A stretch of DNA of 50,774 bases from an uncultured Pseudomonadales bacterium (GTDB lineage: Bacteria; Patescibacteriota; Microgenomatia; UBA1400; MFAQ01). Shown here piece by piece: positions 1-49,804 of the stretch. The stretch spans positions 5,833 through 56,606 of the forward strand of contig CAZPFY010000002.1 in assembly GCA_964586045.1 (NCBI GenBank). The letters are read 5' to 3'. Numbering within the stretch: position 1 is the first letter of the stretch; each line of letters begins with the position of its first letter. Both the position numbers and the translations under genes were made by a program. Below the pieces are notes generated by a model, which had not been told where the DNA came from, did no database searches, and saw nothing but the letters and a program-made list of their open reading frames with translations.

Positions 1-85
1 TAGGTGGTGGAGCGGAGCTTTTGGACACCGGGGATTGAGGTGTTGGTGGTTGAGCTGGTCCTGGTGGTAAAAATTGGTTGTCCAT
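1..85 (-). CDS. 5' part of a Pro-rich hypothetical protein that runs off the window edge (MDNQFLPPGPAQPPTPQSPVSKSSAPPP...)
   Basis: Manual translation from ATG at 85; the frame is open to position 1 and divergent from the VanW-family gene. Confidence 0.6.
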   Translation of the reverse strand, partial: MDNQFLPPGPAQPPTPQSPVSKSSAPPP

Positions 86-129
86 ATAAAAAATAAAAAT
101 ATCGTTGTACTATTATTAGTATAACAAGA

Positions 130-1848
130 ATGAATAAAATAAAGAATCTACTGTTAGGAGTGCTGTTTGTGCTTTTTGTGTTTATTGCCGGTTTTTTGGG
201 GTTTTCGCTAAGTTATAGAGGCTTAATACTACCTAATGTTTTTGTCTCGGATGTTGATTTGGGAGGCTTGGACTCTTTTGTGGCTGAAAAGAAAATTAAG
301 ATGGAATTTGATAATAAGCCAAACACCATTGTCTTTTTAAAAAGTGACGGTACAGATTTGGGAAAGGTGGGAAAATTTGAAGTAGAGAGAAATTTTAAAT
401 GGGTTAGCGATCAGGCAATAAAAATAGGTAGAACAGGAAATTTGCTAGTAGATATTAAAACAAGGATTGATCTTATCTATAAACCAATGAGGCTTGAAAT
501 ACCACTTATTTTTGATGAAAACGAAATGGATAATTATTTGGAGGCACTTATTCAAGAGGTTCAAGTCGAACCAAAGTGGCCAATAATAGCCAAGAAGGAT
601 AAATCTTTTCAAATAATTGAGGGGAACAGCGGGCTGGTTTTAAATAAAGAGAAAATTAAAGCTGAAGTTAGACAAAAGCTTGGGTTGACCGGAAGGCAGC
701 AGTTGGTACTAGAAACAGAAGTGGTTGATACTTCTATAAATAAAGAAGCGGCGACCAGAGCAATGGAATTTTTAAATTCTTGGGGGGATCAAACCTTACT
801 AATAAAATATAGGGAGTACAACAAAAAATTGACGGTTGAAGAAATAGCTCCCCTTTTTGGTCTGACAGGAAATGTTTTAAACTCAGATAATTTTCAAATA
901 TTAGTAAGAGAACTTTCAGAAAAAATTGAGACAGATCCTAAAGACGCAGTCTTTGAATTTGAGAACGGCAGGGTTAAAGAATTCAAGGCAGAAGTGATTG
1001 GGGTAACAATGGACAAACCTAAATTCGAAAAAATATTAAGTGAAGCGTTGACTGATGGCAAAACAAAATCAATAGATATCCCGGTTATTTTGGAGTATCC
1101 AAAAGTATTGGCTGGTGATGTTAACAACATGGGGATTAAAGAACTTATTGGAGTCGGAAAGTCGAGCTTTAGTCATTCCATACCCAACAGAGTGTTTAAT
1201 GTTAATTTGGCAGCATCGAGAATAAACGGAGTGGTAATTGCACCAGGTGAAGAATTTTCGTTTGTTAAGGCCGTTGGGGATATAAATAGACAAACTGGAT
1301 ACCAAGCAGCTTATGTAATTAGCGAAGGAAAAACTGTTTTGGGTGATGGCGGAGGTGTGTGTCAAGTATCAACAACTGTTTTTAGAGCAGCTATGAATTT
1401 TGGGTTTCCAATTACTGAAAGAAAGGCTCACGCTTATAGAGTGGGATACTATGAACAAGACAGTTCCCCCGGGCTAGATGCGACGGTTTACGCACCAACC
1501 ACGGACCTAAAATTTTTGAATGATACGGGACACCACATATTAATTCAGGCAAAGGTAGATACAAAGAATCTAACCATGAAAGTTGAAATATATGGAACAA
1601 ATGATGGAAGGGTGTCGAGCATATCCAAGCCCGTAGTATCCGGCCAAGTAGGTGCTCCCCCAACTAGCTATATTGATGATCCAAACTTACCAAAAGGAAC
1701 AACAAAACAGATTGACTTTGCCGCGGCTGGGGCAAGAGTAGCCTTTGATTATAAAGTTGAGAGAGGTGGGGAAAGTCTGTTTGAAAAAAGATTTGTAAGT
1801 AGCTATCAGCCCTGGAGAGCGGTGTACTTGGTGGGGACTGGCCAATAG
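130..1848 (+). CDS. VanW/YoaR-family membrane-anchored protein with putative peptidoglycan-binding repeats and a C-terminal G5-like region
   Basis: N-terminal TM helix; VanW motifs NRVFNVNLAASRING...PGEEFSF, GGGVCQVSTT, ERKAH, GLDATV, DLKFLN. Confidence 0.85.
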   Translation: MNKIKNLLLGVLFVLFVFIAGFLGFSLSYRGLILPNVFVSDVDLGGLDSFVAEKKIKMEFDNKPNTIVFLKSDGTDLGKVGKFEVERNFKWVSDQAIKIGRTGNLLVDIKTRIDLIYKPMRLEIPLIFDENEMDNYLEALIQEVQVEPKWPIIAKKDKSFQIIEGNSGLVLNKEKIKAEVRQKLGLTGRQQLVLETEVVDTSINKEAATRAMEFLNSWGDQTLLIKYREYNKKLTVEEIAPLFGLTGNVLNSDNFQILVRELSEKIETDPKDAVFEFENGRVKEFKAEVIGVTMDKPKFEKILSEALTDGKTKSIDIPVILEYPKVLAGDVNNMGIKELIGVGKSSFSHSIPNRVFNVNLAASRINGVVIAPGEEFSFVKAVGDINRQTGYQAAYVISEGKTVLGDGGGVCQVSTTVFRAAMNFGFPITERKAHAYRVGYYEQDSSPGLDATVYAPTTDLKFLNDTGHHILIQAKVDTKNLTMKVEIYGTNDGRVSSISKPVVSGQVGAPPTSYIDDPNLPKGTTKQIDFAAAGARVAFDYKVERGGESLFEKRFVSSYQPWRAVYLVGTGQ

Positions 1849-1879
1849 ACCGCAGATCACAGATGTTAGATGACAAATC
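1845..1879 (+). repeat. 7-bp tandem array (NNAGATN family), copy 1
   Basis: atagacc gcagatc acagatg ttagatg acaaatc. Confidence 0.6.
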
Positions 1880-1897
1880 TCGATAGATGGTGTGTTC

Positions 1898-2176
1898 TTA
1901 GATGGTGAGGGTGGCTTTGCCTTTGGGATATTGTTTGATAAAGGCAGCGATGAGGGTTTGGTATGGAACCCCAACTTCAGCGGCTTTCTTCTTGAACTCT
2001 TGAATATGAAGACTAGAAATTCTGAATGAAACCATTTTGTCCTTAAATTGATTTTGGGCAATTGACTTATATCTTTTTATCTCTGATTCTAGGTTTTTGA
2101 CAGATTTCCATTCCCCAGCAAGAATCTCCTTTACCTGTTTTTTTTCTTCTGCTGTAAGTTTATGATTTTTGATCAT
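1898..2176 (-). CDS. Antitoxin, BrnA/CopG-like with C-terminal ribbon-helix-helix
   Basis: VSFRI...KKKAAEVGVPYQTLI motif; lies 1 bp downstream of a BrnT-like toxin; paralog of 23683..23961. Confidence 0.75.
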   Translation of the reverse strand: MIKNHKLTAEEKKQVKEILAGEWKSVKNLESEIKRYKSIAQNQFKDKMVSFRISSLHIQEFKKKAAEVGVPYQTLIAAFIKQYPKGKATLTI

Positions 2177-2177
2177 T

Positions 2178-2441
2178 TTATTTATTTAATTTTTTATTTA
2201 TTTTTCTATTTGCGTAGATTGTCTTCAAAAATATTTTTTCTTCGTCTTCAACAAAAGGTACACAGTGTATATACCCATTGATTTTAATAATGAAGATTTT
2301 TTGATTTTTATATCCTGGATTATCTATTACATCCAAGATATCTCCTGAGATAAGCTTGTCAGCAACCATAGAGAAAGAAACTGATCGACTTTTAATTAAT
2401 AAACGATCCTTTTCTTTGTTCCACTCAATTCTCTTCACCAA
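2178..2441 (-). CDS. BrnT-like (DUF497-type) toxin
   Basis: EWNKEKDRLL...RSVSF and PFVEDEEKIFLKTI motifs; toxin-first order; paralog of 23402..23686. Confidence 0.75.
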   Translation of the reverse strand: MVKRIEWNKEKDRLLIKSRSVSFSMVADKLISGDILDVIDNPGYKNQKIFIIKINGYIHCVPFVEDEEKIFLKTIYANRKINKKLNK

Positions 2442-2446
2442 GATAT

Positions 2447-2475
2447 AGTATAGAGGTGATGTATGACAATGTCAA
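2447..2475 (-). promoter_or_regulatory. Sigma70 promoter of TA pair 1, with a near-palindromic operator candidate over the -35
   Basis: TTGACA-17nt-TATACT on the - strand; TGACATTGTCA overlaps the -35. Confidence 0.75.
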
Positions 2476-2503
2476 TACACTGATTATGAGGTAAAATTAG
2501 CCC

Positions 2504-3559
2504 ATGAAAGTTTTGGCTATAGAATCTACTTGTGATGAGACCGCCGCGGCTGTGGTGGAGAGCTTTGGTGGTGGGGTGAGAGTTTTGAGCTCAGTTATAG
2601 CAAGCTCGGTGAAAATGCATGAAAAATATGGAGGAATTATTCCAGAAATTGCTTCTCGAGAACAAGTAAAAAGCATAACACCGGTAATTATTGAGGCGCT
2701 GGGAGAAGAAACTATTAATGAAGTAGAGGCTATCGCGGTAAGTTTTGGGCCGGGCCTGATGGGAAGTTTACTAATTGGAGTAGAAACGGCAAAGGTGTTG
2801 GCTTGGACTCACAGTAAGCCCCTGTTAAGAGTAAATCACGTAGAGGCTCATTTGATGGCAAATTGGATAATAGAAAAAAATCAAAAAATCAAAAACTCAA
2901 AAACTCAAAATTTTGAAGTTCCAGAATTGCCCGCAATTGGTTTAATAGCCAGTGGGGGGCATACGGGGTTTGTATATATGAAGTCGATAACTGAATGGGA
3001 GTGGGTTGGAGGAACAAGGGACGATGCCACAGGAGAAGCTTTTGACAAGGCGGCAAGAGCTTTTGGACTTCCCTATCCGGGTGGACCAGAAATAGATAAA
3101 ATAACAAAAAATATTTCTGATGAAGAATATAAAAAACTTTTAAAAAAAGAAAGATTGCCGAGACCGTTAATTAATAGTGAAACTTTGGACATGAGTTTTT
3201 CTGGGCTTAAGGCGGCGGTGACCAGAATCACAGATAACAGATTACAGATGACAGATGACAGATTAAAAATTTACGTTAGGGATTTTAGCGAGGCGGTAAC
3301 GGAAATTTTGGTGGCCAAGACAAAACTCGCAATAGACAAGTATGAAGTTAAAAGTGTTTTACTGGCTGGAGGGGTGGCGGCAAACACAAAAATTAGAGAA
3401 GGATTAAGAGCTATGGTTGAAAAGAGAGGCTTGAAGTTTTTTGTGCCTGAATTGAAGTATTGTGGAGACAATGCCGCCATGGTGGGGACGAGTGCTATTC
3501 TGAGACCTGATATAGCTAATTTCGAGGAATCCCCTGACCCGGGAATGAGTGTTGTATAA
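2504..3559 (+). CDS. tsaD: tRNA N6-threonylcarbamoyladenosine synthesis protein TsaD
   Basis: LAIESTCDETAAA, GGIIPEIASR, GPGLMGSL, NHVEAH, SGGHT, TRDDATGEAFDK, SFSGLK, GGVAAN, DNAAMV. Confidence 0.97.
   Translation: MKVLAIESTCDETAAAVVESFGGGVRVLSSVIASSVKMHEKYGGIIPEIASREQVKSITPVIIEALGEETINEVEAIAVSFGPGLMGSLLIGVETAKVLAWTHSKPLLRVNHVEAHLMANWIIEKNQKIKNSKTQNFEVPELPAIGLIASGGHTGFVYMKSITEWEWVGGTRDDATGEAFDKAARAFGLPYPGGPEIDKITKNISDEEYKKLLKKERLPRPLINSETLDMSFSGLKAAVTRITDNRLQMTDDRLKIYVRDFSEAVTEILVAKTKLAIDKYEVKSVLLAGGVAANTKIREGLRAMVEKRGLKFFVPELKYCGDNAAMVGTSAILRPDIANFEESPDPGMSVV
2876..2910 (+). repeat. 8-bp AAAACTCA tandem array inside tsaD
   Basis: aaaaatca aaaaatca aaaactca aaaactca; encodes NQKIKNSKTQN. 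Confidence 0.8.
3230..3264 (+). repeat. 7-bp ACAGATN tandem array inside tsaD
   Basis: acagata acagatt acagatg acagatg acagatt; encodes TDNRLQMTDDRL. Confidence 0.85.
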
Positions 3560-3609
3560 CAAAAGGCCAGGGTGAGGTAAAATTGGATATCGATATTGAG
3601 CAAGGGGAT

Positions 3610-3636
3610 GGATTGCCACGCTTCGCTCGCTATGAC
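3610..3636 (+). repeat. REP/RPE-like palindromic element (GGATT...ATGAC family)
   Basis: ggattgccacgcttcgctcgctatgac. Confidence 0.75.
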
Positions 3637-3644
3637 GAAATAAC

Positions 3645-5777
3645 ATGGATAAAAACTATAACCACACAGAAGTTGAGGATAAAATTTACAAAAAGTGGGA
3701 AGAATCTGGAGTTTTTAGCCCCCCTGCGGGGAAAGATTTGAGCGAGGGAGAAAAAACCTTTACGATTGTTATGCCACCACCAAATGCCAACGATCCCCTA
3801 CACGTAGGCCACGCGATGTTTGTTACTGTTGAAGATATCATGGTTCGCTTCCACAGAATGCTAGGCGAGTCGACCTTGTGGCTCCCTGGAACTGATCATG
3901 CCGGAATTGAGACTCAGTACATGTTTGAAAAAAAACTAGCCAAAGAGGGTAAGAGTCGGTTTGATTACGACAGAGAGACTCTTTACAAAATGATTTGGGA
4001 TTATGTCCAAGAAAATTCGGCTGTATCGATAAATCAGATGAAAAAACTGGGAGCAAGTGCTGACTGGACAAGACAAAAGTTTACTTTGGACAAGGACATT
4101 GTTGATTTAGTTTTGGAGACTTTTATAAAACTGAACGAGAAGGGTTTGGTTTATAAAGCAGAAAGATTGGTTAATTTCTGCACAAAATGTGGGACGGCAT
4201 ATTCTGAACTGGAAGTAGAGTATGAGGAAAAACAAGACAAGATCTACACAATTGATTACGGAGACGGTATTAAAGTAGCCACAACTCGGCCTGAAACAAT
4301 GCTTGGAGATGTAGCTGTTGCCGTTAATCCAAATGACTCTAGGTATAAAGACTTGGTTGGTAAAGAAATAAATTTGCCACTAACCGAGAGGAAAATTCCA
4401 GTAATTGCTGACGAGATGGTTGATATGGAATTTGGAACAGGGGCGGTAAAAATAACCCCCTCTCACGATAAGGCGGACTGGGAAACGGCCGAAAGAGCAG
4501 AGATGAACCTGGTTGAGATTTGTAGCAAATACACAGTAATTGGGGAAAACGGAAAGATGAATGAAAATGCTGGTAAGTACGCGGGGTTGTCTCTCGTAAA
4601 CGCTCGAGAAGCAATACTGAAAGATTTAGGAGAAAAACTAATAGAGACAAAAGATATTGTTCATAACGTGGGAACTTGTTACAGGTGCCATAGAATAATT
4701 GAGCCGATGCCAAAGTCCCAGTTCTTTATCAAAGTTCGCGGTATGGCGGATAAGGTCTTGGCCGCACTAGATAAAGGTGAAATAGAAATACTGGGGTCGG
4801 GACATGACAAAATTCTCCGACACTGGCTAGAAAACCTAAGGGATTGGAATGTAAGCAGACAAATTGTTTGGGGAATAAGATTACCTGTATGGTATAAAAC
4901 TCAAAAACTCGAAAACTCAAAAAATCAAAATGTGGAGTATTTGATACAGAAGGAGAGGCCGGGGGAAGGATGGGTGCAAGAGACGGACACTTTTGACACG
5001 TGGTTTAGCTCGGGTCAATGGCCGGTGGTAACACTTAAAACAGCCAAAGAAGAAGATTTTGAAAAATATTATCAAAGCAACAAAGACAATACCTCGGTAA
5101 TGGAAACAGCGTACGACATCCTCCCCTTTTGGGTAATGAGAATGTTGATGTTGGGCATTGAAATGACGGGACAAGTGCCTTTTAAAACTGTATTTTTGCA
5201 CGGACTGGTAAGAGATGAAAAGGGGCAAAAAATGAGCAAGAGCAAGGGTAACGCGGTTAATCCCCTGGAGTTGTCGGAAAAATACGGTACTGACGCCCTC
5301 AGAATGGCCTTGGTAATGAGTACAGCCCCAGGAGTGGACTCAAATACTGGAGAGAATAAAGTAAGAGGAATGAGGAACTTTGCAAATAAGATTTGGAATA
5401 GCGCTCGCTATTCAAGCGAGCTCAAAAACTCAAAAACTCAAGAAATCAAAAACTCAAAAGACGAAGAGTTTGAGAAGAAGATGAAGGAAATTGCAGATGA
5501 GATGACGAGGTTGCTGAATGAAAACAAAATTGGTTTGGCGGCGGAGACTGTTTACAATGAGTTTTGGCATTGGTACTGCGACGAACAAATAGAATTAAGC
5601 AAAAAAGGAGAGATTTCAAGTACGGTTTTGACCGGAGGGCTGAAAACTTTCTTAAAACTACTGCATCCATTTGTGCCGTTTGTTACTGAGGCGGTGTGGC
5701 AGGAAATTTTCCCTGGTGAAGGATTGTTGATTTCTCAGATATGGCCAGAACTGGATTCCGGGTCAAGCCCGGAATGA
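3645..5777 (+). CDS. valS: Valine--tRNA ligase, short form lacking the C-terminal coiled-coil arm
   Basis: PPPNANDPLHVGH (HIGH motif), GTDHAGI, ATTRPETMLGD, DWNVSRQIVWG, DTFDTWFSS, KMSKS. Confidence 0.96.
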   Translation: MDKNYNHTEVEDKIYKKWEESGVFSPPAGKDLSEGEKTFTIVMPPPNANDPLHVGHAMFVTVEDIMVRFHRMLGESTLWLPGTDHAGIETQYMFEKKLAKEGKSRFDYDRETLYKMIWDYVQENSAVSINQMKKLGASADWTRQKFTLDKDIVDLVLETFIKLNEKGLVYKAERLVNFCTKCGTAYSELEVEYEEKQDKIYTIDYGDGIKVATTRPETMLGDVAVAVNPNDSRYKDLVGKEINLPLTERKIPVIADEMVDMEFGTGAVKITPSHDKADWETAERAEMNLVEICSKYTVIGENGKMNENAGKYAGLSLVNAREAILKDLGEKLIETKDIVHNVGTCYRCHRIIEPMPKSQFFIKVRGMADKVLAALDKGEIEILGSGHDKILRHWLENLRDWNVSRQIVWGIRLPVWYKTQKLENSKNQNVEYLIQKERPGEGWVQETDTFDTWFSSGQWPVVTLKTAKEEDFEKYYQSNKDNTSVMETAYDILPFWVMRMLMLGIEMTGQVPFKTVFLHGLVRDEKGQKMSKSKGNAVNPLELSEKYGTDALRMALVMSTAPGVDSNTGENKVRGMRNFANKIWNSARYSSELKNSKTQEIKNSKDEEFEKKMKEIADEMTRLLNENKIGLAAETVYNEFWHWYCDEQIELSKKGEISSTVLTGGLKTFLKLLHPFVPFVTEAVWQEIFPGEGLLISQIWPELDSGSSPE
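4896..4930 (+). repeat. 8-bp AAAACTCA tandem array inside valS
   Basis: aaaactca aaaactcg aaaactca aaaaatca; encodes KTQKLENSKNQN. Confidence 0.8.
5421..5459 (+). repeat. Second 8-bp AAAACTCA tandem array inside valS
   Basis: ctca aaaactca aaaactca agaaatca aaaactca; encodes LKNSKTQEIKNSK. Confidence 0.8.
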
Positions 5778-5844
5778 CAGAGGTGTTTATTTGAAGGATT
5801 GCCATCTTCCCGATGTGACATCCGGAACGGGTCGCGGAAATGAC
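5753..5844 (+). repeat. Two tandem REP/RPE-like elements (5753-5778 and 5796-5844); the first supplies the last codons and stop of valS
   Basis: ggattccgggtcaagcccggaatgac and ggattgccatcttcccgatgtgacatccggaacgggtcgcggaaatgac. Confidence 0.75.
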
Positions 5845-5855
5845 AAGCGCTTGAA

Positions 5856-5889
5856 TTTAAAAAACTCCCCGTTTGTGGAGTTTTTTAAA
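5856..5889. terminator. Probable bidirectional intrinsic terminator between convergent valS and rplY
   Basis: Inverted repeat tttaaaaaactcc-loop-ggagttttttaaa with A and T tracts. Confidence 0.75.
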
Positions 5890-5899
5890 AATAAAAATT

Positions 5900-6571
5900 T
5901 TATTCTTTTGGTTTGGAGTCGGTAGCTGGTTCTTCACCATCCTTCTTTTCTTCTGTGGCAGAACCTTCGACTTCGGCTTCAACTACAGTAGTGTCTAGTG
6001 GTTCTTCTTCTTTTTGAAGATCGCCGAGAGCAACAACAATTGTTTCTGGGTCGGTTAGCAAGGTAACCTCTTGAGGAATGACAAGAGAGGAAACTTTGAG
6101 ATTGTCGCCTACCTCTTTAAGGTTAGAAATATCAAAAACAAATTTTTCTGGAATATCGGTAGGTAAGGCTTCGACTTCGATTTCGTCGAGATGGGTGTCT
6201 AAAACAGCCAGGCCATCTTTAACAAGTTGAGATTCACCTTCAAATTCAACAGGAACGTTGGCAGTAACCTTTTCCTTCAAGTTTACTTGGTGAAAATCAA
6301 TGTGATAGAGATTTCCTTTAATAGGATCTGTGGTGAAGCCTTTTACCAAAGTAGGCCTTTCTTTGGCCTCCCCTGGGATTGAAATCCAAACAAGGCTGGT
6401 CTCTCCTGCCTGCTTATAGATCCTTTTGAACTCAACTGCTGAAACCTGGGCAGAGATACTGTCAATAGTCTTACCAAAAATAGTAACAGGAATTAAGCCT
6501 TTGTTGCGTAGACTTTTTACTTTACTGCCTACAATATCTCTATTATCAGCCTTTAATGAGTATTTATTCAT
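5900..6571 (-). CDS. rplY: 50S ribosomal protein L25 (long Ctc form)
   Basis: LKADNRDIVGSKVKSLR...HIDFHQV...VPVEFEGES...EVEALPTDIPE, acidic tail; ATG at 6571 preferred because TACAAT lies 6 nt upstream. Confidence 0.93.
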   Translation of the reverse strand: MNKYSLKADNRDIVGSKVKSLRNKGLIPVTIFGKTIDSISAQVSAVEFKRIYKQAGETSLVWISIPGEAKERPTLVKGFTTDPIKGNLYHIDFHQVNLKEKVTANVPVEFEGESQLVKDGLAVLDTHLDEIEVEALPTDIPEKFVFDISNLKEVGDNLKVSSLVIPQEVTLLTDPETIVVALGDLQKEEEPLDTTVVEAEVEGSATEEKKDGEEPATDSKPKE

Positions 6572-6628
6572 GGAGGTATTGTAACTTAAATGCCCCAAAA
6601 ACTCTAGCCTGAAGAGACTCCCCCACGT

Positions 6629-9514: not shown

Positions 9515-9550
9515 ATTAAAATTGGAGTTATTTGTTATAGATACGGGGAT

Positions 9551-39075: not shown

Positions 39076-39079
39076 TTGT

Positions 39080-40538: not shown

Positions 40539-40541
40539 TTA

Positions 40542-40670: not shown

Positions 40671-40719
40671 AGGTGAAATTGATAGGGAATGGGGGAAGTG
40701 ATTGGGTAAATTATTGTTT

Positions 40720-41619: not shown

Positions 41620-41625
41620 AATTAT

Positions 41626-41961: not shown

Positions 41962-41965
41962 AAGT

Positions 41966-42361: not shown

Positions 42362-42406
42362 AAATTTCAATTCTAATTTTACCATGACAGAAAGATGTTT
42401 ATTAAA

Positions 42407-42428
42407 AAACCACCCCAAAAGGTGGTTT
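42407..42428 (-). terminator. Intrinsic terminator after 42434..43276
   Basis: aaaccacc-ccaaaa-ggtggttt hairpin followed by a T tract on the - strand. Confidence 0.6.
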
Positions 42429-42433
42429 AAAAA

Positions 42434-43276
42434 TTATTTCCAATTATTGTCTGAACATAATTTTCGGTAATTACTGTTTGCATTAGAATAAAGAGGTGAA
42501 ACAGCAATGCAACTATTTAATATTTCCCAGCCAGGATCACCTCCTCTAATTATTTGATCAACGCAGAAAAATGTTTTTTCTTGCCCGGAAGCTAATTCAA
42601 ATTCTGTCGTATTTTTGTCTGTAAAACAGAACGAGTGAAAATATCGAAGAAATATATTTAAGTTGCTTGGACCTAGATTTTTAACAGAATACTTAGTCCA
42701 TTTGGAGTACTTGGAGTTATTATCTCTGCTGCAAGGATCTTCTTCCCTTTGTATTGATTGGCCACCCATATTAACATTTATTTCGGTCCAGCAATAATAA
42801 CTACTTATTCCCTCTTCTGGTGCCCATTGTCCGACATTTGGTGGTGTATTAAAAATGGGATTGTAGTTTTCTTTTATGCTGTAAATCTGGACGGGAATAT
42901 TGTAACCCGATATCTGGCCTGAATAGGATGATTGTAGAGATACAAATGGGCCGGTTGCAAGAGAAACGATAAGGAATCCGCAACAGATTTTGATAGCAAG
43001 GGGCATTTTTTTGAAGAGTAACAAGTAGGGTATAAGGGTAATACTCAAGAAAAGTATTGTTTCTATTGTATAAATTAATATGGCGTCTGTCACCGGAACC
43101 GACGTTGCTCCTCCTGTTATGGCTGTGAATATTGCCATTGAGCACAGTTGGCCAAGAAGAAATGGTGCGGCAAGAATTGCAAGTATGACAAAAACCATAA
43201 CTCCGAAACCCTCGAATCCTGTTCCAACGCTTTCTGTAAAACCACCGTTTCCGTCTGGAATGTAGTGTTTTGACAT
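42434..43276 (-). CDS. Hypothetical membrane protein (about 3-4 TM helices plus a Cys-containing extracellular domain)
   Basis: Hydrophobic N-terminal half; AAAGGAGA Shine-Dalgarno. Confidence 0.7.
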   Translation of the reverse strand: MSKHYIPDGNGGFTESVGTGFEGFGVMVFVILAILAAPFLLGQLCSMAIFTAITGGATSVPVTDAILIYTIETILFLSITLIPYLLLFKKMPLAIKICCGFLIVSLATGPFVSLQSSYSGQISGYNIPVQIYSIKENYNPIFNTPPNVGQWAPEEGISSYYCWTEINVNMGGQSIQREEDPCSRDNNSKYSKWTKYSVKNLGPSNLNIFLRYFHSFCFTDKNTTEFELASGQEKTFFCVDQIIRGGDPGWEILNSCIAVSPLYSNANSNYRKLCSDNNWK

Positions 43277-43403
43277 TTTTGTCTCCTTTTTAGTTTTTAA
43301 GTGTGCTTAATTGATATTATATAACTATGGGTCCTTTTTTGCTACCGTCTGTATTTTGAGGGGTTGAGGGTACATTTTACTGAGTGCATACGACATTGGG
43401 GTT

Positions 43404-43436
43404 GATGCCACAGTTAGGTATAAAATTCGCAATGAC
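43404..43436 (+). repeat. Degenerate REP/RPE-like element
   Basis: gatgccacagttaggtataaaattcgcaatgac. Confidence 0.65.
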
Positions 43437-43458
43437 GGATGCAGTAAACTAGATAGAG

Positions 43459-45201
43459 ATGTATAAGAGATATCTACTAATATTGGTTGTGTTGTTTGTT
43501 TTTTTGAAGACGGTGGTTTTTGCGGAGACGGATTGTGGGAATGACATTGATTGTTTACAAAGACAAGTTACCGAACTAAACAAATCTTTACAAATGAGTG
43601 TGGCGGCAACTAAGCCACTGGAGTCTGAAATTAGCAGATTAAGTAGCAGAATAAAATCGATTCAAAACCAAGTGGACTTGGCGGTTAAAAAACAAAAAGA
43701 AACGGAGCTGGAGATAAAAGAAAGAGGCAAAAAAGTTTCTGACCAGTATTTGGTTTTGGCGGTAAAACTTAGAGAAATGTACAAGAGGCTTCGGTCTCGT
43801 CCCTTATGGGTGAACTTGATTGCCAGTAAGGGTTTGGGAGAAATTCGAAGGGAGATAGCGTACAGGCAAGATAGTAACGATAAAGATAGACAGGTAATTA
43901 TTTCGTTGGTGGAAGAAATTTCTTCGCTGGAAATTGACAAGAAAAAACTGGAAGACCAAAAAATACAGCTTTCAAAGTTACAGACGGAATTGGACAAGCA
44001 AAACAGTTTTTTCTTGGGGGAAGTAAAAAAGGCAAAAGCCTACCAAAGTGATCTTAGTAATAAAATTGCCCAACTTTCGGCCAAACAACAACAGCTTTTG
44101 GCGGAAAAACTGGGTAGTCTTAATTTGTCTACAAGTTTGGGTGGGGGAAATCTTAACTGCACAGATGACAGAAAGCTTGATCCGGGATTTTCTAATGCTT
44201 TTGCTTTTTATACTTATGGAATTCCACATCGAGTGGGTCTAGATCAATATGGGGCGTATGGAAGAGCCAAAGCGGGTCAGTCGGCAGAAGATATTTTGAG
44301 AGCTTATTTTGATAATTTTGAGTTTGTTGGAGGTAAGGAGGGGGAGACAATAAAAGTAAACGGTAAAAATGAATTTGGGCAAGTTTTTAGCAACGAGTCG
44401 ATGAATATCGAAGAATACTTGAAGCATTTATACGAAATGCCATCTTCTTGGGACAACAAAGCTTTGGAGGCGCAAGCAATTGCGGCCAGGTCGTATGCTT
44501 TGTTTGAGCAAAAATCAAAAGGCTTTGTTTATCCAAGCCAAGCTGATCAAGTGGTTAAAAAAGAAATGAACGCTCAGAGTTGGATAAGTGCGGTAGAAGC
44601 TACAAAGGGAAAAATTATTGCACAAGGGGGGCAACCGGTGAAAGCCTGGTATGCGTCGACGGCTGGTGGCTACACCTTTAACTCTGGGGATATTTGGTCG
44701 CGAAATACGTCGTACACAAAAAGACTACGAGACACAACAGGGGATGTTGGGAGTTTTGAAGATTTGAAAAATAAAGCATATGACAGAGAATCGCCATGTT
44801 TTTATTCTGCGCAGGGATGGAGAGCTCAGTACAACAAATCGGCATGGTTAAAACAGGAAGAGGTGGCGGATATTGTGAATGTTTTAAAACTAGCTTTAAA
44901 AGATGGTGGGACGCAAAATCATTTGTCTCAGGTAGATAAACCAAATCCGGACGGAACCGATACCTGGGATGAGGAAAAAGTTAAAGCTGAACTTCGAAGT
45001 AGAGGAGCAAAGCCGTTTAATAATATTTCTAATATAAGTGTGTCGGCAGATTTTGGAGTTGGGAAGACGACAAGTGTGACGGTTACTGGGGACGCAGGAA
45101 CAGAATCTTTTTCGGCTAATGATTTTATAAATTATTTTAATCTTAGAGTTCCGGCTAATATTCAAATCGTGGGTCCACTGTTTAATGTGGAGAGGAGGTA
45201 G
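43459..45201 (+). CDS. Secreted coiled-coil plus SpoIID/LytB-domain protein (putative lytic transglycosylase)
   Basis: Signal peptide, long coiled coil, HRVGLDQYGA, EEYL..L.EMPSSW...ALEAQAIAARSYA, AVEATKG, YASTAGG. Confidence 0.85.
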   Translation: MYKRYLLILVVLFVFLKTVVFAETDCGNDIDCLQRQVTELNKSLQMSVAATKPLESEISRLSSRIKSIQNQVDLAVKKQKETELEIKERGKKVSDQYLVLAVKLREMYKRLRSRPLWVNLIASKGLGEIRREIAYRQDSNDKDRQVIISLVEEISSLEIDKKKLEDQKIQLSKLQTELDKQNSFFLGEVKKAKAYQSDLSNKIAQLSAKQQQLLAEKLGSLNLSTSLGGGNLNCTDDRKLDPGFSNAFAFYTYGIPHRVGLDQYGAYGRAKAGQSAEDILRAYFDNFEFVGGKEGETIKVNGKNEFGQVFSNESMNIEEYLKHLYEMPSSWDNKALEAQAIAARSYALFEQKSKGFVYPSQADQVVKKEMNAQSWISAVEATKGKIIAQGGQPVKAWYASTAGGYTFNSGDIWSRNTSYTKRLRDTTGDVGSFEDLKNKAYDRESPCFYSAQGWRAQYNKSAWLKQEEVADIVNVLKLALKDGGTQNHLSQVDKPNPDGTDTWDEEKVKAELRSRGAKPFNNISNISVSADFGVGKTTSVTVTGDAGTESFSANDFINYFNLRVPANIQIVGPLFNVERR

Positions 45202-45224
45202 GTGGGTTTGGTACAATATATGTA

Positions 45225-45872
45225 ATGGCGGAGATATTTAAGACCAAGGAGAAGGAGTCTGAACAAATTCAGAGATTGTTGGGAGATAGTTTTTCTAGGA
45301 GCTTGTGGAGTTCCTTTGTGGTAAACCCTGACAAACTTCGGTTTCAATCTCAACACGACCAAGAAGAAGTTATCTTGTTGGGTCGCAGACATCCCATTAC
45401 GAATTTGGGTTGGATGAGCTTGGTGGCTGTTGCGTTGGTGGTTCCTATGTTTTGGATGGAGTTTCCTTTTTTTGCTGTTCTTACCGAAGTTACCATTACG
45501 AAAGTTACAATTCTTTGGTATCTAAGTTTAATTTTTTATGTAATTTTGAATTTTTTGTTGTGGTTTTACAACGTTTATATTGTTAGTGATGAGCGATTGA
45601 TAGATGTGGACTTTACCGGTCTTTTGAACAAAACAGTAAATATTGCTGAACTGGGCAAGCTGGAGGATGTCAATTATAGTCAAAACGGTTTAATGGATAG
45701 CTTGTTCAACATGGGGGATGTAATTGTTCAGACGGCATCAGAACAAAAAACACAGGATGCTTCTGGTGAGCTATCGGCTTTTACTTTTGAGCAGATAGCA
45801 AATCCAGATAAAGTGGCTCAAGTAATTTCGCAGTTAATAGATAACGAACAAGAGGAGGATAAAAGAAGATAA
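45225..45872 (+). CDS. Membrane protein with a bacterial PH-like (bPH_2) domain
   Basis: F.SQ...EEVIL..RRHP, two TM helices, YIVSDERLIDVD, KLEDV, FNMGDVIVQTA. Confidence 0.75.
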   Translation: MAEIFKTKEKESEQIQRLLGDSFSRSLWSSFVVNPDKLRFQSQHDQEEVILLGRRHPITNLGWMSLVAVALVVPMFWMEFPFFAVLTEVTITKVTILWYLSLIFYVILNFLLWFYNVYIVSDERLIDVDFTGLLNKTVNIAELGKLEDVNYSQNGLMDSLFNMGDVIVQTASEQKTQDASGELSAFTFEQIANPDKVAQVISQLIDNEQEEDKRR

Positions 45873-45873
45873 T

Positions 45874-46089
45874 ATGGATCTTACAAATATAAACATCTTT
45901 GATTTTATAGTAAGCACAATGGTTACAATTTCCCTTTTGTTGCTTTGTGTTTTGTCGTTAATTATGGTTCGTCAAGCGGGCTTAATGAATAAAGTTGTGA
46001 ACTATCCAATAGGAGGGAGTTTAAAAGTGTTAGTTTGGGGATTTTGTATTCTTTGTATAGCGATCACTGGTATAGTTATTGTAGTGTGA
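45874..46089 (+). CDS. Small two-TM membrane protein (DUF5657-like)
   Basis: 71 aa; SLIMVRQ..LMNKVV motif between the TM helices; operonic spacing. Confidence 0.6.
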   Translation: MDLTNINIFDFIVSTMVTISLLLLCVLSLIMVRQAGLMNKVVNYPIGGSLKVLVWGFCILCIAITGIVIVV

Positions 46090-47978
46090 ATAATGGTTTT
46101 GGAATAAATTTTTTAAGATATATTTGTGAGGAAGATGCCAGTTCTTGGTCTCAGATTTTTGCTAGATTGCCGTTTGATGAAGCTGAGCTGAAGCAAAAAG
46201 GAGCATTGTTTGGGCTAATAAAAAATGATGTTAAGGAAAACTGGGCTGAGGTAGAGATGGAAATAACGAATTGGGTGGAAGAGTATTTTAATGGAGTGGA
46301 GGTGGGTGGAAACCTGGCGGATTTTTTTGGAAAGTTTGATGATAAATACGACGATTTTGAGAGTTTGTGGGTTTGGATAACCATGGAGGGTTTGGAAAGA
46401 AAAATAAAAATTGTAGGTAAGGGTGGGGTAAAAATTGTTATTTGTAGAAAAGAGACAAAAATAAATTTAAGTGAAAACTTAAAAAGAGGAAAGGTGATCT
46501 CTGGAGATATTGGTGTTGGTGATGAGATTAGAATGTGGTTGGGGGCATTAAGTGATGATTTTGAAACTTGGGACGGAGAAGTTGCTAATCAACTAAGTTG
46601 TTTTTCAGCGTTTAAAATTACAATTGGAGAGATGAATCAGCCTGTGGTCGAAAGTGATGGTTCGCAAATAACAGAGGAGGCTGGAGATAGTTTAGAAGTT
46701 GTCGACGAACCACAGGTAGAGGTGGTTCCCGCAAAAGTAGAGAGTGGTAGTAATGGTATAGAAGAAGTAAAAATTTTTGAAAATGAGAGTTTGGCGACGG
46801 ACAAGATTGTTGGGAAATTAACGTTTATTTTGAAGATTAAAAATTGGCTGAGAAGAAGAAATTTTGAAAAAGTTGACCGATCTGTTATGGCAGACAAGCG
46901 AAAAAAGTTTTCTCTCGTTTTGGGTGGTGTGTTTTTGGTTTTACTAGGTTTGAGTTTGGTTTTTGGAGGATTACAGAAGAAGAGTAATGAGTATGAAAAG
47001 AAGTGGTTAAGTTTTTCGGAGCCAATTGAAAAAAATATAAGTGAGGCGGTTGGCCTTGGGAAGTTAAATCCTGGAGGGTCCAGGAAGTTAATTGAAGACG
47101 CGAGGACTTCTTTTGAACAAAAAAAGACTGAGTTTGGAGACGAAAAATATAAAGAAAAAGTTATCAGCCTTGGTAAAAAAATTGATGAAGCTTGGGTGAG
47201 TGTTTCGGGAGAAAAAAGCGGAAATCTGACAGAAGCGGTTAACTTGGATCTCATACGGGCAGGGGTTAATGCTAGCAGGGTAAGCTACGTGAGCGGAGAA
47301 AAACTGGTAGTTATTAGTTCTTTGTCTGGATTGGTTATGTCGGTTGACACAAAAGAGAAAGAAGTTAAGGTCGTCGCGGGTAAGGGAGCGGGTTTGGGAT
47401 GGATAGATGCGGTTTCGGATGGACGTAAAGTTTTTGTAATGAATAAAGGAGGGTTGTTTACTGCGGGGAATGAGTTATCACCCTTGGCGTTTGATACGGC
47501 GATAACAGATCCGATTGCCATGTCGCGATTTGGAGCTAATCTGTATGTGTTGGAAAAAGGGAACAAAGAAATTTTTAAATTTTTGATAGGTGAAAGTGGT
47601 TTTGGAGAGAGAGCAAGGTGGTTAAAGGAGGGGCAGGCAATCTCTGACATCCCAGTAGATATGGATATTGACGTTGACGTTTGGGTACTGGAAGAAAAAA
47701 ATCAAATAGAAAGATTTAGGAGGGGGGTGCGGGAACCCTTTGGTTTGCGAGGTCTGCCACAAGGGAAGGTTTTTGAGAAGATTTCGGTAGAAAAAAATGG
47801 AGACAGAATTGCTTTGCTAAGCTCTAGTTCTGGCCTGGTAGTGTATTGCAGTAAGTTAAGTGGAAGTTGTGAACAGCAGGTTTTATCGGATAAATTGAAG
47901 GAGGCAAGGGATGTTGAGTTTAACGAGGCAAATGTTTTGATGGTGTTGTTGCCAGGTTCTGTTGGAGTGTTAAACTAG
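46086..47978 (+). CDS. Bitopic membrane protein with a C-terminal beta-propeller-like domain
   Basis: GTGA overlap with the upstream stop; central TM; repeated NLYVL / DVWVL / RIALL strand motifs. Confidence 0.65.
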   Translation: MNNGFGINFLRYICEEDASSWSQIFARLPFDEAELKQKGALFGLIKNDVKENWAEVEMEITNWVEEYFNGVEVGGNLADFFGKFDDKYDDFESLWVWITMEGLERKIKIVGKGGVKIVICRKETKINLSENLKRGKVISGDIGVGDEIRMWLGALSDDFETWDGEVANQLSCFSAFKITIGEMNQPVVESDGSQITEEAGDSLEVVDEPQVEVVPAKVESGSNGIEEVKIFENESLATDKIVGKLTFILKIKNWLRRRNFEKVDRSVMADKRKKFSLVLGGVFLVLLGLSLVFGGLQKKSNEYEKKWLSFSEPIEKNISEAVGLGKLNPGGSRKLIEDARTSFEQKKTEFGDEKYKEKVISLGKKIDEAWVSVSGEKSGNLTEAVNLDLIRAGVNASRVSYVSGEKLVVISSLSGLVMSVDTKEKEVKVVAGKGAGLGWIDAVSDGRKVFVMNKGGLFTAGNELSPLAFDTAITDPIAMSRFGANLYVLEKGNKEIFKFLIGESGFGERARWLKEGQAISDIPVDMDIDVDVWVLEEKNQIERFRRGVREPFGLRGLPQGKVFEKISVEKNGDRIALLSSSSGLVVYCSKLSGSCEQQVLSDKLKEARDVEFNEANVLMVLLPGSVGVLN

Positions 47979-47982
47979 AGTC

Positions 47983-48420
47983 GTGTCACTTGTAAACAAA
48001 AAAGCCAGATTTGATTATGAGATTATAGAGTCTTACGAGGCTGGTATTGTGCTGACCGGAGCTGAAGTTAAATCTGTTCGTTCTGGAGGGGTTAATTTTG
48101 CGGGAGCAAGGGTGGTATTTGATGAAGGGGAGGCAAAAATAATTGGGCTTAACATTTTGAAATATAAGTTTGATTCGGCAGAAAACTATGAGCTAAGCCG
48201 AGCCAAAAAAGTATTGCTTCACAAGAAGGAAATCCTAGAAATTCATACCAAAATGAGATCGGCTGGATTGACTTTGGTGCCTGTGAAGCTGTATAATAAG
48301 GGTAGTCTCGTAAAGGTTCAAATAGCTTTGGTTAGAGGTAAGAAAAAATACGAAAAAAGAGAAGCTATAAAGAAAAGGGATGTTGAGGCCGGGTTAGCGA
48401 GAAGATTAAAAAGTAACTAG
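47983..48420 (+). CDS. smpB: SsrA-binding protein SmpB
   Basis: NKKARFDYEI...EAGIVLTGAEVKS, LLHKKEI, GLTLVP, RGKKKYEKRE. Confidence 0.97.
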   Translation: MSLVNKKARFDYEIIESYEAGIVLTGAEVKSVRSGGVNFAGARVVFDEGEAKIIGLNILKYKFDSAENYELSRAKKVLLHKKEILEIHTKMRSAGLTLVPVKLYNKGSLVKVQIALVRGKKKYEKREAIKKRDVEAGLARRLKSN

Positions 48421-48437
48421 CTGAAAGGCAAAATAAT

Positions 48438-48680
48438 ATGGACATTTTTTGGTCGAAAATAATGCCAACCTGTGTGTTGCAATTTCCTTGGGGAAGAGAA
48501 TTTAGTGCCAAAATGAGTGTAAAAAAATGGGAAGATAACATTGCTGTTAAGGTGGAAAAAATGACAGACGATGAATTTGATTTATTCCTTTCGGCTGTTG
48601 TTATGCAGTCTAGTAAGGATCAAATGATGGGAGTAGCTTTGACGGAAAAAATTCAATTTTTTAGAAGCCTGAGGAAGTAG
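48438..48680 (+). CDS. Small hypothetical protein (start uncertain)
   Basis: 80-aa ORF filling the gap after smpB. Confidence 0.5.
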   Translation: MDIFWSKIMPTCVLQFPWGREFSAKMSVKKWEDNIAVKVEKMTDDEFDLFLSAVVMQSSKDQMMGVALTEKIQFFRSLRK

Positions 48681-48682
48681 TT

Positions 48683-49771
48683 TTATTTGAACAGGGGGTA
48701 AATGTAATTTTCTAGTTCCATTTTGTTAATCTCTGGCATATTGTCCCCAAGAAATATCACCCCTCTTGATTTTTTTGTAATTTTTTGAAATATATAGGTT
48801 TGATTTTTTGATAGACCAAATGATTTATGGCACGCAAAAATATCAGGATCTATTTGCCACAGCTCTTTTGTTTCAGCTCTATTGTGAAAATTATTTATTA
48901 GTTGGCGAAGCCTCATTTTGTGAACTAATTGATTTAACGGATACGTGTTTTTTAAAGGGGGGAGTAAAACATCGTCGCTTATTCTCATAGAGTTGACTAA
49001 ACCGGCTGCTGGCTTCAGCGGACACCCACAAGCCATAATATAGATGTTTTTGTTGATATTTCTTATGTCCTTGAGAAGCTTTGATAATAGTTTATCGGGA
49101 GCAGATTGGTTTGAATATTTTGGATAAAAATGACCAGCGTACAAAAAATCAACCTTGAGGAGGCTTACTTTCCAATCATTAATTATTGTTTTGAAGCAAT
49201 TGAGAATATATGCATATGCATCATCCAATTCTAAATTAAGAATATATTTTTTGTCAGGCAACAGAAAGTCAAAAAAGTAATTTTTTTTTCCGTTTGGATA
49301 AAATCCAAGTCTATTTTTTATAAACCAATCTGGGTGTTTTTTAAAAAGTTCAGATTTTGGATCGGCTAAAAAAGGAGCAACCCACAAGCCAGTTTTAAAG
49401 CCCAACTCTGAGTTTTTTTGAACAGTTTGTTTCAATCCGTTGGGGAACTTATTTAAGTTTGTTATATTCCAGTCTCCCCACGTGGTCCAACCATCATCTA
49501 TTTGAATGTATTCTATTGGTGCCTCTTTTTTATGGTTAGCGAACCATTGGGCAATTGATAGTAGATATTTTTCGGTTACTTTTGTTCCTGTAGATGGCCA
49601 AGAACTCCAGCCGTAAATTGGTTTGTTGGGGAGGGAGTGATGATTGTTGGTTGCAACAGAATCTGTCTCGTCAAAAGGAGAGTAATTTCTGATTCTTTTT
49701 AGAAAATATTTTTTATGGTTGGTATTGCTCCAAGATTGCCATCCCTTGAGGATTATTTTATTATTTTTCAT
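48683..49771 (-). CDS. Alpha-galactosidase-like glycoside hydrolase (GH36/GH27 clan D catalytic barrel)
   Basis: GWSSW, IQIDDGW, KFPNGLK, GLWVAP, LKVDF (nucleophile), MRISDD (acid/base). Confidence 0.85.
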   Translation of the reverse strand: MKNNKIILKGWQSWSNTNHKKYFLKRIRNYSPFDETDSVATNNHHSLPNKPIYGWSSWPSTGTKVTEKYLLSIAQWFANHKKEAPIEYIQIDDGWTTWGDWNITNLNKFPNGLKQTVQKNSELGFKTGLWVAPFLADPKSELFKKHPDWFIKNRLGFYPNGKKNYFFDFLLPDKKYILNLELDDAYAYILNCFKTIINDWKVSLLKVDFLYAGHFYPKYSNQSAPDKLLSKLLKDIRNINKNIYIMACGCPLKPAAGLVNSMRISDDVLLPPLKNTYPLNQLVHKMRLRQLINNFHNRAETKELWQIDPDIFACHKSFGLSKNQTYIFQKITKKSRGVIFLGDNMPEINKMELENYIYPLFK

Positions 49772-49804
49772 GGGTTACTGTTTTGAGTATATCAAGGAGA
49801 AGTA

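Follow-up and report, generated by a model that had tools for sequence, protein, structure and literature searches.

One-sided strand composition and a two-armed chromosome architecture in a lineage of Microgenomatia

A cumulative GC skew that rises monotonically over the whole chromosome was described by Kadnikov et al. (2020; Microorganisms 8:320, PMC7143001) in 'Ca. Chazhemtobacterium aquaticus' Ch65, one Ca. Collierbacteria genome and one Ca. Beckwithbacteria genome, but not in a more distant family. In the accessible part of that paper the skew is explained by ori and ter lying close together or by unidirectional theta replication, no overall A/T disparity is reported, the skew is unrelated to the number of genes per strand, and other candidate phyla radiation (CPR) lineages have ordinary skew. 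Ch65 also stands as the obvious outlier among 17,873 complete genomes in the available portion of a further study (PMC11514846). Here, we have analyzed a stretch of 50,774 nt (the window) that carries dnaA, dnaN and a probable oriC, and that comes from a very small groundwater bacterium, probably of the same lineage and with the same phenomenon. The one-sided skew and the idea of one-directional copying are already published for this lineage, and the genome of the window is a further case. The new part is the two-armed architecture within which this composition is found, i.e., the direction of the open reading frames (ORFs), the polar word AGGGGA, and a dif-like site roughly opposite dnaA. The accessible part of PMC7143001 makes no mention of a two-arm layout, of strong and weak skew halves, of an A over T bias at four-fold degenerate sites or of the substitution spectrum, all of which are presented here.

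The Pseudoalteromonas chromids replicate one way, as shown by sequencing depth, and the available part of that work places dif 4-27 kb from ori in these unidirectional chromids and on the side opposite ori in replicons copied bidirectionally (Xie et al., 2021; mBio 12:e02745-20, PMC7858055). As far as the available text describes them, the chromids resemble the chromosome studied here in being large replicons with one-sided GC skew; they differ in their plasmid-type RepA and in having dif beside ori, where the present chromosome has DnaA with a box cluster and a dif-like site on the opposite side. Genomes whose skew indicates rolling circle replication are mentioned in the part of Chen et al. 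(2020; PMC7111523) that could be consulted, and conjugation-type secretion systems are reported as widespread in the phylum in the accessible text of PMC12102498. The accessible part of the iRep preprint (10.1101/057992) shows no coverage profile for this lineage.

Strand composition of the window and of the whole chromosome

The window comprises positions 5833-56606 of contig C2 of a 1.19-Mb assembly in 72 contigs (G000, the genome of the window). Its + strand is G-rich throughout: GC skew is above zero in 49/49 2-kb bins of the whole window (range 0.092 to 0.517), and the cumulative skew climbs monotonically across it, without a minimum near 15 kb. Among 846 non-overlapping 60-mers, G exceeds C in 652, equals it in 46 and falls below it in 148; those with more G than C amount to 169/222 left of dnaA and 460/594 right of the dnaN start. 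A first-pass annotation, made from the letters of this DNA, had noted that the + strand stays G-rich on both sides of oriC, and the bins bear this out to either side of rpmH-rnpA-yidC-jag and dnaA-dnaN. The three 60-mers counted by hand in that annotation are exact (G24/C5, G20/C6, and G19/C9) and typical of the 846 rather than outliers, the rnpA coding strand is indeed C-rich, and the names given to rpmH, rnpA, yidC, jag, dnaA, dnaN and a VirB4-like ATPase are upheld by profile matches. The features of the origin region are as follows:

1..50774, no strand: whole window with a G-rich + strand, according to the skew bins, the 60-mers and a third-codon-position GC skew of equal sign in ORFs of both strands
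11308-11769, - strand: jag (with yidC, matches to NF041568 and TIGR03592 over the interval 11308..12529)
11771-12529, - strand: yidC (same matches)
12825..13160, - strand: rnpA, coding strand C-rich (TIGR00188, E 2.3e-14)
13162..13302, - strand: rpmH, L34 (PF00468, E 3.5e-20)
13304..15144, no strand: DnaA-box cluster, probable oriC, covering the rpmH-dnaA spacer, the dnaA 5' end, the dnaA-dnaN spacer and the dnaN start
13444..14829, + strand: dnaA (TIGR00362, E 4.9e-133, above the cut-off)
15121..16236, + strand: dnaN (TIGR00663, E 9.7e-83)

In + strand terms, ORFs of the window's contig have a third-position skew of +0.416 when they lie on the + strand and +0.451 when they lie on the - strand, and the intergenic skew is +0.168, within an overall GC skew of 0.225 and an AT skew of 0.024. 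With ORFs of the two strands agreeing in sign, the bias does not arise from coding. No short zone of inverted skew, as in a layout with ori and ter close to each other, was found between oriC and a nearby fork block, all the bins between 9 and 15 kb being positive. The G-rich + strand of the window is part of a one-sided G/C, and weaker A/T, strand bias that extends over the whole chromosome.

The chromosome-wide extent of the bias was followed in G005 (a single-contig genome of the same family, 0.91 Mb), in G009 (also single-contig and of the same family, 1.09 Mb, of which the first 1.08 Mb was analyzed and the last 9.4 kb left out) and in G026 (a single-contig genome from another family of the same order, sampled as 20 stretches of 20 kb, i.e., 400 kb of 1.05 Mb). 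The genome of the window shares the one-sided skew and the family rank with G005 and G009, being a further genus of their family, and shares the order rank with G026. The + strand is G-rich in 87/90 10-kb bins of G005, the - strand is G-rich in 108/108 bins of G009, and skew is positive in the 20/20 stretches sampled from G026. The contigs of the window's own genome were oriented by their best protein hits to G005, requiring at least five hits and at least 80% agreement; 38 contigs, which sum 856 kb of 1,193 kb, could be placed in this way, the other 34 being too weakly anchored and left out of the count. Skew was positive in 37/38 of the oriented contigs, the exception being C31 at -0.07, and none of the 72 contigs contains a persistent change of skew sign. 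Several contigs of mixed sign (C8, C18, C39, C31, C19, C14, and others) were considered as sites of a skew switch and rejected, as they are weak-skew or variable regions with no clean flips. The contigs fall into two classes, with strong (|0.2-0.3|) and weak (|0.05-0.12|) skew, and the weak-skew contigs are those with ORFs on the C-rich strand.

Seven further genomes of the family were analyzed over 20 kb around dnaA and around the dif-like site; they are kin and do not count as independent trials. Their two dnaA flanks have skews of 0.128-0.261 and 0.159-0.268, and the two flanks of the dif-like site, within single contigs, have skews of 0.191-0.295 and 0.050-0.175. Altogether, skew is positive on both sides of dnaA in 10 assemblies. 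The opposite-skew replichores that the annotation had named as the observation contrary to its view were not found in the related complete genomes. Thus, a G-rich, purine-rich strand runs all round the chromosome, and the trait extends from this family to one or more sister families. The ordinary GC skew that replication leaves in bacterial chromosomes, reportedly described by Lobry and Grigoriev, is similar in strength and in its neutral-site character, and there too the G-rich strand carries the rRNA operon; the difference is that here the sign does not change at the origin or in the dif region.

The DnaA proteins of G005 and G009 are each about 70% identical to that of the window. Gene order is almost frozen between these two genomes, which belong to two genera (526/538 reciprocal best hits are collinear), with no inversion across the origin or the dif-like site. 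X-shaped synteny, tried as a mark of inversions between two forks, was uninformative given this almost complete collinearity.

The bias was then quantified at neutral sites, with per-class numbers that are approximate because the ORF calls are crude (longest non-overlapping ORFs of at least 80 aa). In G-rich-strand terms, the four-fold GC skew is positive in all four classes of region by gene strand, both in G005 (strong half 0.635 and 0.289, weak half 0.501 and 0.108) and in G009 (0.491 and 0.201 in the strong half, 0.397 and 0.079 in the weak half), so that the sign is again the same in ORFs of both strands. It can be decomposed into a strand term of about 0.3-0.4, a gene-direction term of about 0.15-0.18, by which the coding strand prefers C over G, and a regional term of about 0.05-0.08. 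Four-fold sites of the G-rich strand have in addition more A than T (A>T 0.11-0.16), i.e., it is a purine-rich strand. Once corrected for orientation, the four-fold skew varies smoothly (0.17-0.60 in G005), being strongest about 100-150 kb clockwise of dnaA and weakest in the middle of the left arm, and in 30-kb bins neither the origin nor the dif-like site is marked by a step. Models of the skew strength round the circle fit slightly better as a triangle or cosine than as a step or saw-tooth in both closed genomes (sum of squared errors of the saw-tooth 2006 vs. 1875 in G005, and 2168 vs. 2053 in G009, for triangle or cosine).

Substitutions were polarised in a three-taxon comparison of G018 and G023 (87% identity) with G013 (72%) as third taxon, a rough count, since a distant third taxon and a skewed composition can bias it. 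Among 3,596 polarised substitutions, the A>G rate on the G-rich strand is above that of T>C in all four flanks (T>C / A>G ratios of 0.57, 0.58, 0.84, and 0.52). At third positions T>G exceeds A>C 2.5-fold, and C>T is about equal to G>A. An excess of A>G is the change expected on a strand that is single-stranded for longer. The bias is current, acts at neutral sites, and is independent of gene direction. In animal mitochondrial DNA, which replicates by strand displacement, one strand is distinct round the circle at neutral sites and the exposed strand has an A>G excess, and the present chromosome is alike in these three respects. It differs in that mitochondrial skew follows the single-stranded time and jumps at two origins, whereas here it is smooth, without a jump at dnaA or at the dif-like site; moreover, the G-rich strand is here A-rich, not T-rich.

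A G>T loss (8-oxoguanine type) on the C-rich strand was considered as a cause and rejected. The idea was suggested by the four-fold A>T bias and by the lack of a MutY-family match with Ung present: no match to MutY or to any helix-hairpin-helix glycosylase-like protein was found in G000, G005 and G009, while 14/14 control genomes match, and Ung is present in 3/3 of these genomes. The polarised substitutions disagree with it, the asymmetry being in A>G and T>G, with C>A against G>T at 0.82 over all sites and 1.40 at third positions (small counts).

The repeats of the window are also one-sided. The annotation had described repeat families that keep one orientation across the origin, which holds, although its counts do not: octamer arrays of the AAAAACTC type, detected with Tandem Repeats Finder, are A-rich on the + strand in 8/8 cases, four left and four right of dnaA (five and four had been given), and GGATT...ATGAC elements lie eight times on the + strand, four on each side (five and six had been given), besides two long-spaced - strand matches that are probably due to chance. 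The arrays are the following:

2874-2914, 4893-4933, 5417-5460, and 12770-12797, + strand: AAAAACTC-type octamer arrays left of dnaA
32928-32965, 37079-37118, 39672-39696, and 40539-40576, + strand: AAAAACTC-type octamer arrays right of dnaA

The oriented count proposed by the annotation for the complete genome extends the result, with 77/89 octamer arrays on the G-rich strand (61/69 in strong-skew contigs and 16/20 in weak-skew contigs); in G009 the figure is 35/37, and G005 has only two arrays. Period-7 arrays were found at 3230 and 11270, and short AT-rich ones at 7556, 11769, and 31344. Two of the octamer arrays (4893-4933 and 5417-5460) fall within the valS ORF (3645-5777), which matches only positions 1-716 of the 863-position valS model. 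In the likely source run, contigs with many alternative joints were found between these valS arrays, 490-505 bases apart, which points to length variants or to an ambiguous assembly of the repeats.

A polar word, a dif-like site and gene direction define two arms

To describe the architecture independently of the skew, words were scanned for a change of strand preference between halves set a priori by dnaA and its antipode, within ORFs of the same orientation, using rotated boundaries as a control and G005 and G009 as the discovery set. Few words came out of the scan, and AGGGGA led in both genomes. Among the hexamers in - strand ORFs, the true boundary gave four words in G005 and nine in G009, and the rotated boundaries gave 1, 0, and 3 words in G005 and 0, 0, and 6 in G009. 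In the a priori halves, AGGGGA counts are 182/42 (right) and 63/152 (left) in G005, and 175/68 (right) and 81/159 (left) in G009. This polarity is present in ORFs of either strand and in intergenic DNA. Of 30 G4-type hexamers, AGGGGA is the only one lying mainly on the C-rich strand in the left half, its fraction on the G-rich strand there being 0.29 and 0.34, with 0.42 to 0.76 for the other hexamers. The same behavior was observed in the genome of the window (right-arm contigs 161/43, left-arm contigs 83/138; Fisher p 4e-18).

Within the window, all 10 - strand sites of AGGGGA are at or before 8305, and 19/21 + strand sites are at or after 10756. Cut at the dnaA start, a boundary set a priori, the sites divide into 4+/10- and 17+/0- (p 2.3e-5); cut at 9520, a position chosen after looking, they divide into 2+/10- on the left and 19+/0- on the right (Fisher p 1.5e-6). 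GC skew is +0.20 on the left and +0.25 on the right of this switch. The features concerned are:

8305..10756, no strand: interval of the AGGGGA strand change, from the last - strand site (8305) to the first + strand site of the right-hand run (10756)
9422-9618, no strand: spacer inside the switch interval, with a perfect DnaA box at 9506-9514 and a GGATT...ATGAC element at 9551
9619..10056, - strand: RNase HI-like gene adjoining the polarity switch (NCBIfam RNase H models, best E 3.9e-28, all below cut-offs)
6629..9421, - strand: gene of a DUF4012 protein of 930 aa (PF13196, E 7.3e-15)

Part of the 9422-9618 spacer is conserved in G005. The DUF4012 gene, which adjoins the polarity switch and contains the last AGGGGA sites of left-arm type, forms an AT-rich stretch (GC 0.31 vs. 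about 0.39). The switch lies 3-5 kb upstream of dnaA in the window and 3-7 kb upstream overall, and the seven further genomes gave the following AGGGGA counts:

More than 5.5 kb upstream of dnaA, seven further genomes: 4+/24-
From -5.5 kb to the dnaA start codon, seven further genomes: 31+/9-
Downstream of the dnaA start, seven further genomes: 29+/4-
Left of the dif-like site, pooled from the six genomes with both flanks: 65+/7-
Right of the dif-like site, same six genomes pooled: 1+/53-

Since AGGGGA switches strand within a few kb of dnaA, this region is, as far as architecture goes, a real origin. DnaA boxes with at most one mismatch number 27 in the window against 15.0 +/- 4.1 in shuffles, and the 13419-15144 region contains 7/27 of them and 2/3 of the perfect boxes of the window. 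There is an AT-rich stretch at about 15060-15100, and the densest box cluster occupies the dnaA-dnaN spacer in G005 and G009 as well. The parS consensus has no match in the window with up to three mismatches.

On the far side of the chromosome of G005, AGGGGA flips between 90,086 and 90,527, from 24+/1- before to 2+/27- after (55-135 kb), and inside this gap, at 90,413-90,444, lies the dif-like site ATACGTCGCACAATAATACTTTTGCGACGTAT, a 32-mer made of two 13-bp inverted arms that match at 12/13 positions around a 6-bp center. In G009 the dif-like site is at 818,855-818,886, also at the AGGGGA flip (25+/9- vs. 4+/22-), and in the genome of the window it is at 12,735-12,766 of contig C16 (14+/1- vs. 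0+/8-). AGGGGA flips at this site in nine genomes, and in a tenth the contig ends at the site. With at most three mismatches, the 32-mer occurs exactly once in 27/44 genomes of the family, a reversed control giving no matches, and it was not found in 17 genomes of six genera, among them two genomes from the genus of the window. Lying roughly opposite dnaA, the site divides the chromosome into arms of about 423/482 kb (G005) and about 460/630 kb (G009).

The FtsK gamma domain (PF09397, above the cut-off, in frames of 711-735 aa) is encoded in G000, G005, and G009, and each of the three genomes has two hits to the XerD model (E of about 1e-72 and 1e-46), neither of which reaches the equivalog cut-off of 329.6 bits. 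The dif-like site and the better Xer-like gene are 0.6 kb apart in G005 and 6.7 kb apart in G009, and in G000 they are on different contigs. From position only, we infer a dif-like role for the 32-mer and a KOPS-like role for AGGGGA (KOPS, FtsK-orienting polar sequences), which would orient FtsK; a Chi-like role of AGGGGA may also be considered. KOPS and the equivalent SRS (SpoIIIE recognition sequences) motifs are GGGNAGGG in E. coli and GAGAAGGG in B. subtilis, and dif has usually an 11-6-11 form. The likeness to these systems consists of a short word, rich in G, that keeps to the ori-to-dif strand in both arms whatever the gene strand, and that flips exactly at a single-copy inverted-repeat site near a tyrosine-recombinase gene, with FtsK gamma present. 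The differences are that the word is here a hexamer of moderate polarity (74-90% per arm) and the site has a 13-6-13 form; besides, a polar word is not known to run against the composition bias in ordinary genomes, and left-arm AGGGGA does so here. A limited search found, among the papers listed, none joining KOPS or dif with CPR or Patescibacteria.

Several other observations concern the surroundings of the dif-like site. In G005 the site lies upstream of the best Xer-like gene, and a half-site recurs just before that gene. Perfect DnaA boxes were found at 87,837, 90,191, and 90,944 of G005 (i.e., 3/11 perfect boxes of this genome within 3.1 kb of the site), at 819,097 of G009, and near 12.5 kb of contig C16 of G000, so that in each of the three genomes one perfect box is about 215 bp from the site. 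These boxes may serve the regulation of the Xer gene, the titration of DnaA, or something origin-like. The 1.1-kb spacer at the G005 site has AT-rich runs and four direct repeats CCTATAA(T/C). About 200 bases to the right of the site there is a stretch of 52-53 bases (90,629-90,681 in G005, 13,027-13,078 of C16 in G000, and also in G009) that shows 94% (G009) and 87% (C16) identity across genera and opens with ATG; it may represent a small RNA or else a mini-ORF of some 21 codons.

The direction of the ORFs follows the same two arms, diverging near dnaA and converging on the far side. In G005, the + strand carries 0-36% of the ORFs between about 120 and 500 kb and most of the ORFs elsewhere, with a zone of mixed direction at 500-640 kb that contains dnaA (576 kb); G009 mirrors this pattern. 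ORFs pointing from ori to dif amount to 357/477 (75%) in the left arm and 263/442 (60%) in the right arm of G005, 413/614 (67%) and 273/480 (57%) in those of G009, and 403/602 and 276/476 in those of the window's own genome. The left arm has rplB, rpoB, and tuf on its C-rich strand, at a distance of about 100 kb from dnaA, and the right arm has the 16S rRNA gene on its G-rich strand, all of them co-oriented with their arms. In G026, ORF direction and AGGGGA flip near 350 kb, with a weaker pattern. The tRNA genes ignore the arms (24/48 point from ori to dif in G005 and 13/47 in G009); in the left arm 35/52 are on the G-rich strand, compared with only 25-33% of the ORFs there. As an independent marker of fork direction the tRNA genes had a mixed outcome and were abandoned.

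A block of the left arm near the origin (523-551 kb in G005, 219-232 kb in G009) has AGGGGA in right-arm orientation (11/14 and 6/6 sites), mixed ORF direction, and the usual positive skew. It looks like an old inversion in which the composition has been re-written and the word polarity has not.

Explanations for a one-sided bias in a two-armed chromosome

The first-pass annotation had inferred that the whole region was long copied by one rightward fork. This inference stands in part: the one-sided bias favors it and one fork is the simplest cause of such a bias, whereas the dif-like site, AGGGGA and the ORFs are two-armed, and rplB, rpoB, and tuf are head-on. We tentatively put first, as a reading that falls a little short of probable on the present sequence comparisons, that the chromosome is copied predominantly in one direction from its DnaA origin with the two-arm layout retained. 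The chromosome would be copied mostly in one rotational sense from this origin, by a unidirectional theta or a sigma-like mode, and the G-rich strand would be the one left single-stranded. The two-arm ori-to-dif layout would have been kept from bidirectional ancestors. The composition, the octamer arrays, and the GGATT...ATGAC elements, all one-sided, would be written by the mechanics of DNA synthesis; the dif site, the FtsK-guiding word, and the ORF direction would be selected features linked to segregation or expression, which could persist whatever the fork direction. The lack of a four-fold step at the origin and at the dif-like site is predicted by copying in one direction and not by copying in two, and 35/52 tRNA genes of the left arm are oriented as a fork with a G-rich leading strand would have them. 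One known cause would thus account for all the neutral, mechanical features.

A number of results weigh against predominantly one-directional copying. Left-arm AGGGGA is mostly on the C-rich strand (62 to 174 in G005, and 91 to 192 in G009); held in this way against the composition bias, it indicates that the two-arm layout is maintained now and is no fossil. The ORF direction is two-armed, as given above, and 57-60% of ORFs overall would be head-on to a single rightward fork. So would rplB, rpoB, and tuf on the C-rich strand, and we know of no precedent for these three genes running head-on to the fork. The tRNA genes of the right arm show no bias (20/43). Finally, dif lies opposite dnaA, unlike in the only bacterial replicons experimentally proven to be unidirectional, where the accessible text locates it 4-27 kb from ori (PMC7858055). 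Sequencing depth speaks for neither side: seven runs contain this DNA, stored as contigs, and the four compared over 4001-24000 have a flat depth of one figure per contig, in short pieces.

Bidirectional replication from the dnaA origin to the dif region, with the usual leading/lagging bias near nil and the one-sided bias due to a separate process acting on one and the same strand in both arms, is a serious possibility that we still hold as doubtful. It would account for a single-copy dif-like site opposite dnaA where AGGGGA flips within a few hundred bases in nine genomes, for the FtsK gamma domain and Xer-like recombinases in 3/3 genomes, for the two-armed ORF direction, for rplB, rpoB, and tuf near the origin co-oriented with a leftward fork, and for the 16S gene co-oriented in the right arm; it also has precedent, dif being opposite ori in two-way replicons and beside ori in one-way replicons in the part of PMC7858055 available. 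On the other side, this explanation needs two changes, the loss of the ordinary skew and the gain of a new four-fold bias of 0.3-0.45. The octamer arrays and the GGATT...ATGAC elements are one-sided too, the tRNA genes are not co-oriented with the arms, and no known process marks a single strand over the full length of a circle copied bidirectionally. The separate process could be one that exposes or damages one strand along its whole length, and in this combination, to which we give the same doubtful standing, one candidate is a repeated handling of the entire chromosome as single strands by the conjugation-type machinery that begins beside dnaN:

16220..23305, - strand: conjugation-type secretion cluster, directly after dnaN, on the C-rich strand, with unassigned ORFs besides the genes below
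17291-19723, - strand: M23-peptidase protein
19727-21733, - strand: VirB4-like ATPase (NF045971, E 3.1e-107)
22421-23305, - strand: PrgI-family protein (PF12666, E 1.6e-8)

The VirB4-like, PrgI-family, and M23 hydrolase genes of this cluster also lend some plausibility to a third explanation, in which one strand is regularly single-stranded through a rolling-circle or strand-displacement process, for example a conjugation-like export or import of one chromosomal strand or a sigma-type mode with products resolved at the dif-like site. The A>G excess on the G-rich strand fits prolonged single-strandedness, and the dif-like site is a 13-6-13 inverted repeat with a perfect DnaA box at the distance given above in three genomes. 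There are also the genomes with rolling-circle-like skew mentioned in the accessible part of Chen et al. (PMC7111523). We consider this third explanation unlikely. No relaxase or oriT turned up, in analyses that included no search aimed at a relaxase or oriT, and in both closed genomes the saw-tooth of skew strength that it predicts is a poorer fit than a triangle or cosine. Furthermore, in the portions available, such secretion systems are reported as widespread in the phylum (PMC12102498) and other CPR lineages have ordinary skew (PMC7143001).

That gene direction, codon choice, or selection on composition would generate the bias as a by-product, without strand-specific mutation, is very improbable and is refuted at four-fold and intergenic sites. 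The four-fold gene-direction term (C over G by about 0.15-0.18) is sizeable and the weak-skew contigs are those with ORFs on the C-rich strand, both of which speak for it, but four-fold sites on either strand and intergenic DNA share one sign, and the polarised substitution rates are asymmetric in all four flanks. A moved origin, an inverted region, or a misassembled contig with an ordinary skew switch elsewhere, which the annotation had left as its alternative, is scarcely credible and, to the extent that sequence can tell, refuted: oriC lies tens of kb from dnaA in some bacteria, and the assembly has 72 contigs and an N gap just left of the window, but there is no persistent sign change in those contigs, in the closed relatives, or in G026, 34/34 best hits of the window's contig to G005 are in one orientation, the dnaA neighborhood is collinear in relatives, as are 526/538 reciprocal best hits between G005 and G009, AGGGGA flips near dnaA, single contigs of seven further assemblies have positive skew to either side of dnaA and of the dif-like site, and left-arm genes on the C-rich strand are, by logic, a relation that no inversion can make or remove.

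Meaning for the lineage

Whichever reading is true, the polarity of composition and the polarity of architecture are uncoupled in this chromosome. We have found no description of such uncoupling in a cellular chromosome in the literature searched. Among complete genomes, no clearer break of single-strand base parity is known than that of this lineage, as far as the accessible part of PMC11514846 shows. GC skew is the standard for placing origins and termini, for checking assemblies, and for estimating growth rates from peak-to-trough ratios, according to the available parts of PMC7111523 and 10.1101/057992. Applied to this lineage, it yields neither an origin nor a terminus, and correct assemblies would be flagged by it as wrong; the polar word and the dif-like site still place both landmarks from sequence alone. 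The published one-direction explanation is now in conflict with a dif opposite ori. If it is true, a DnaA-dependent cellular chromosome copied in one direction within a two-arm layout would be something new, and a strand-wide mutational process unrelated to fork direction, if that is what acts here, would be equally new for such a chromosome.

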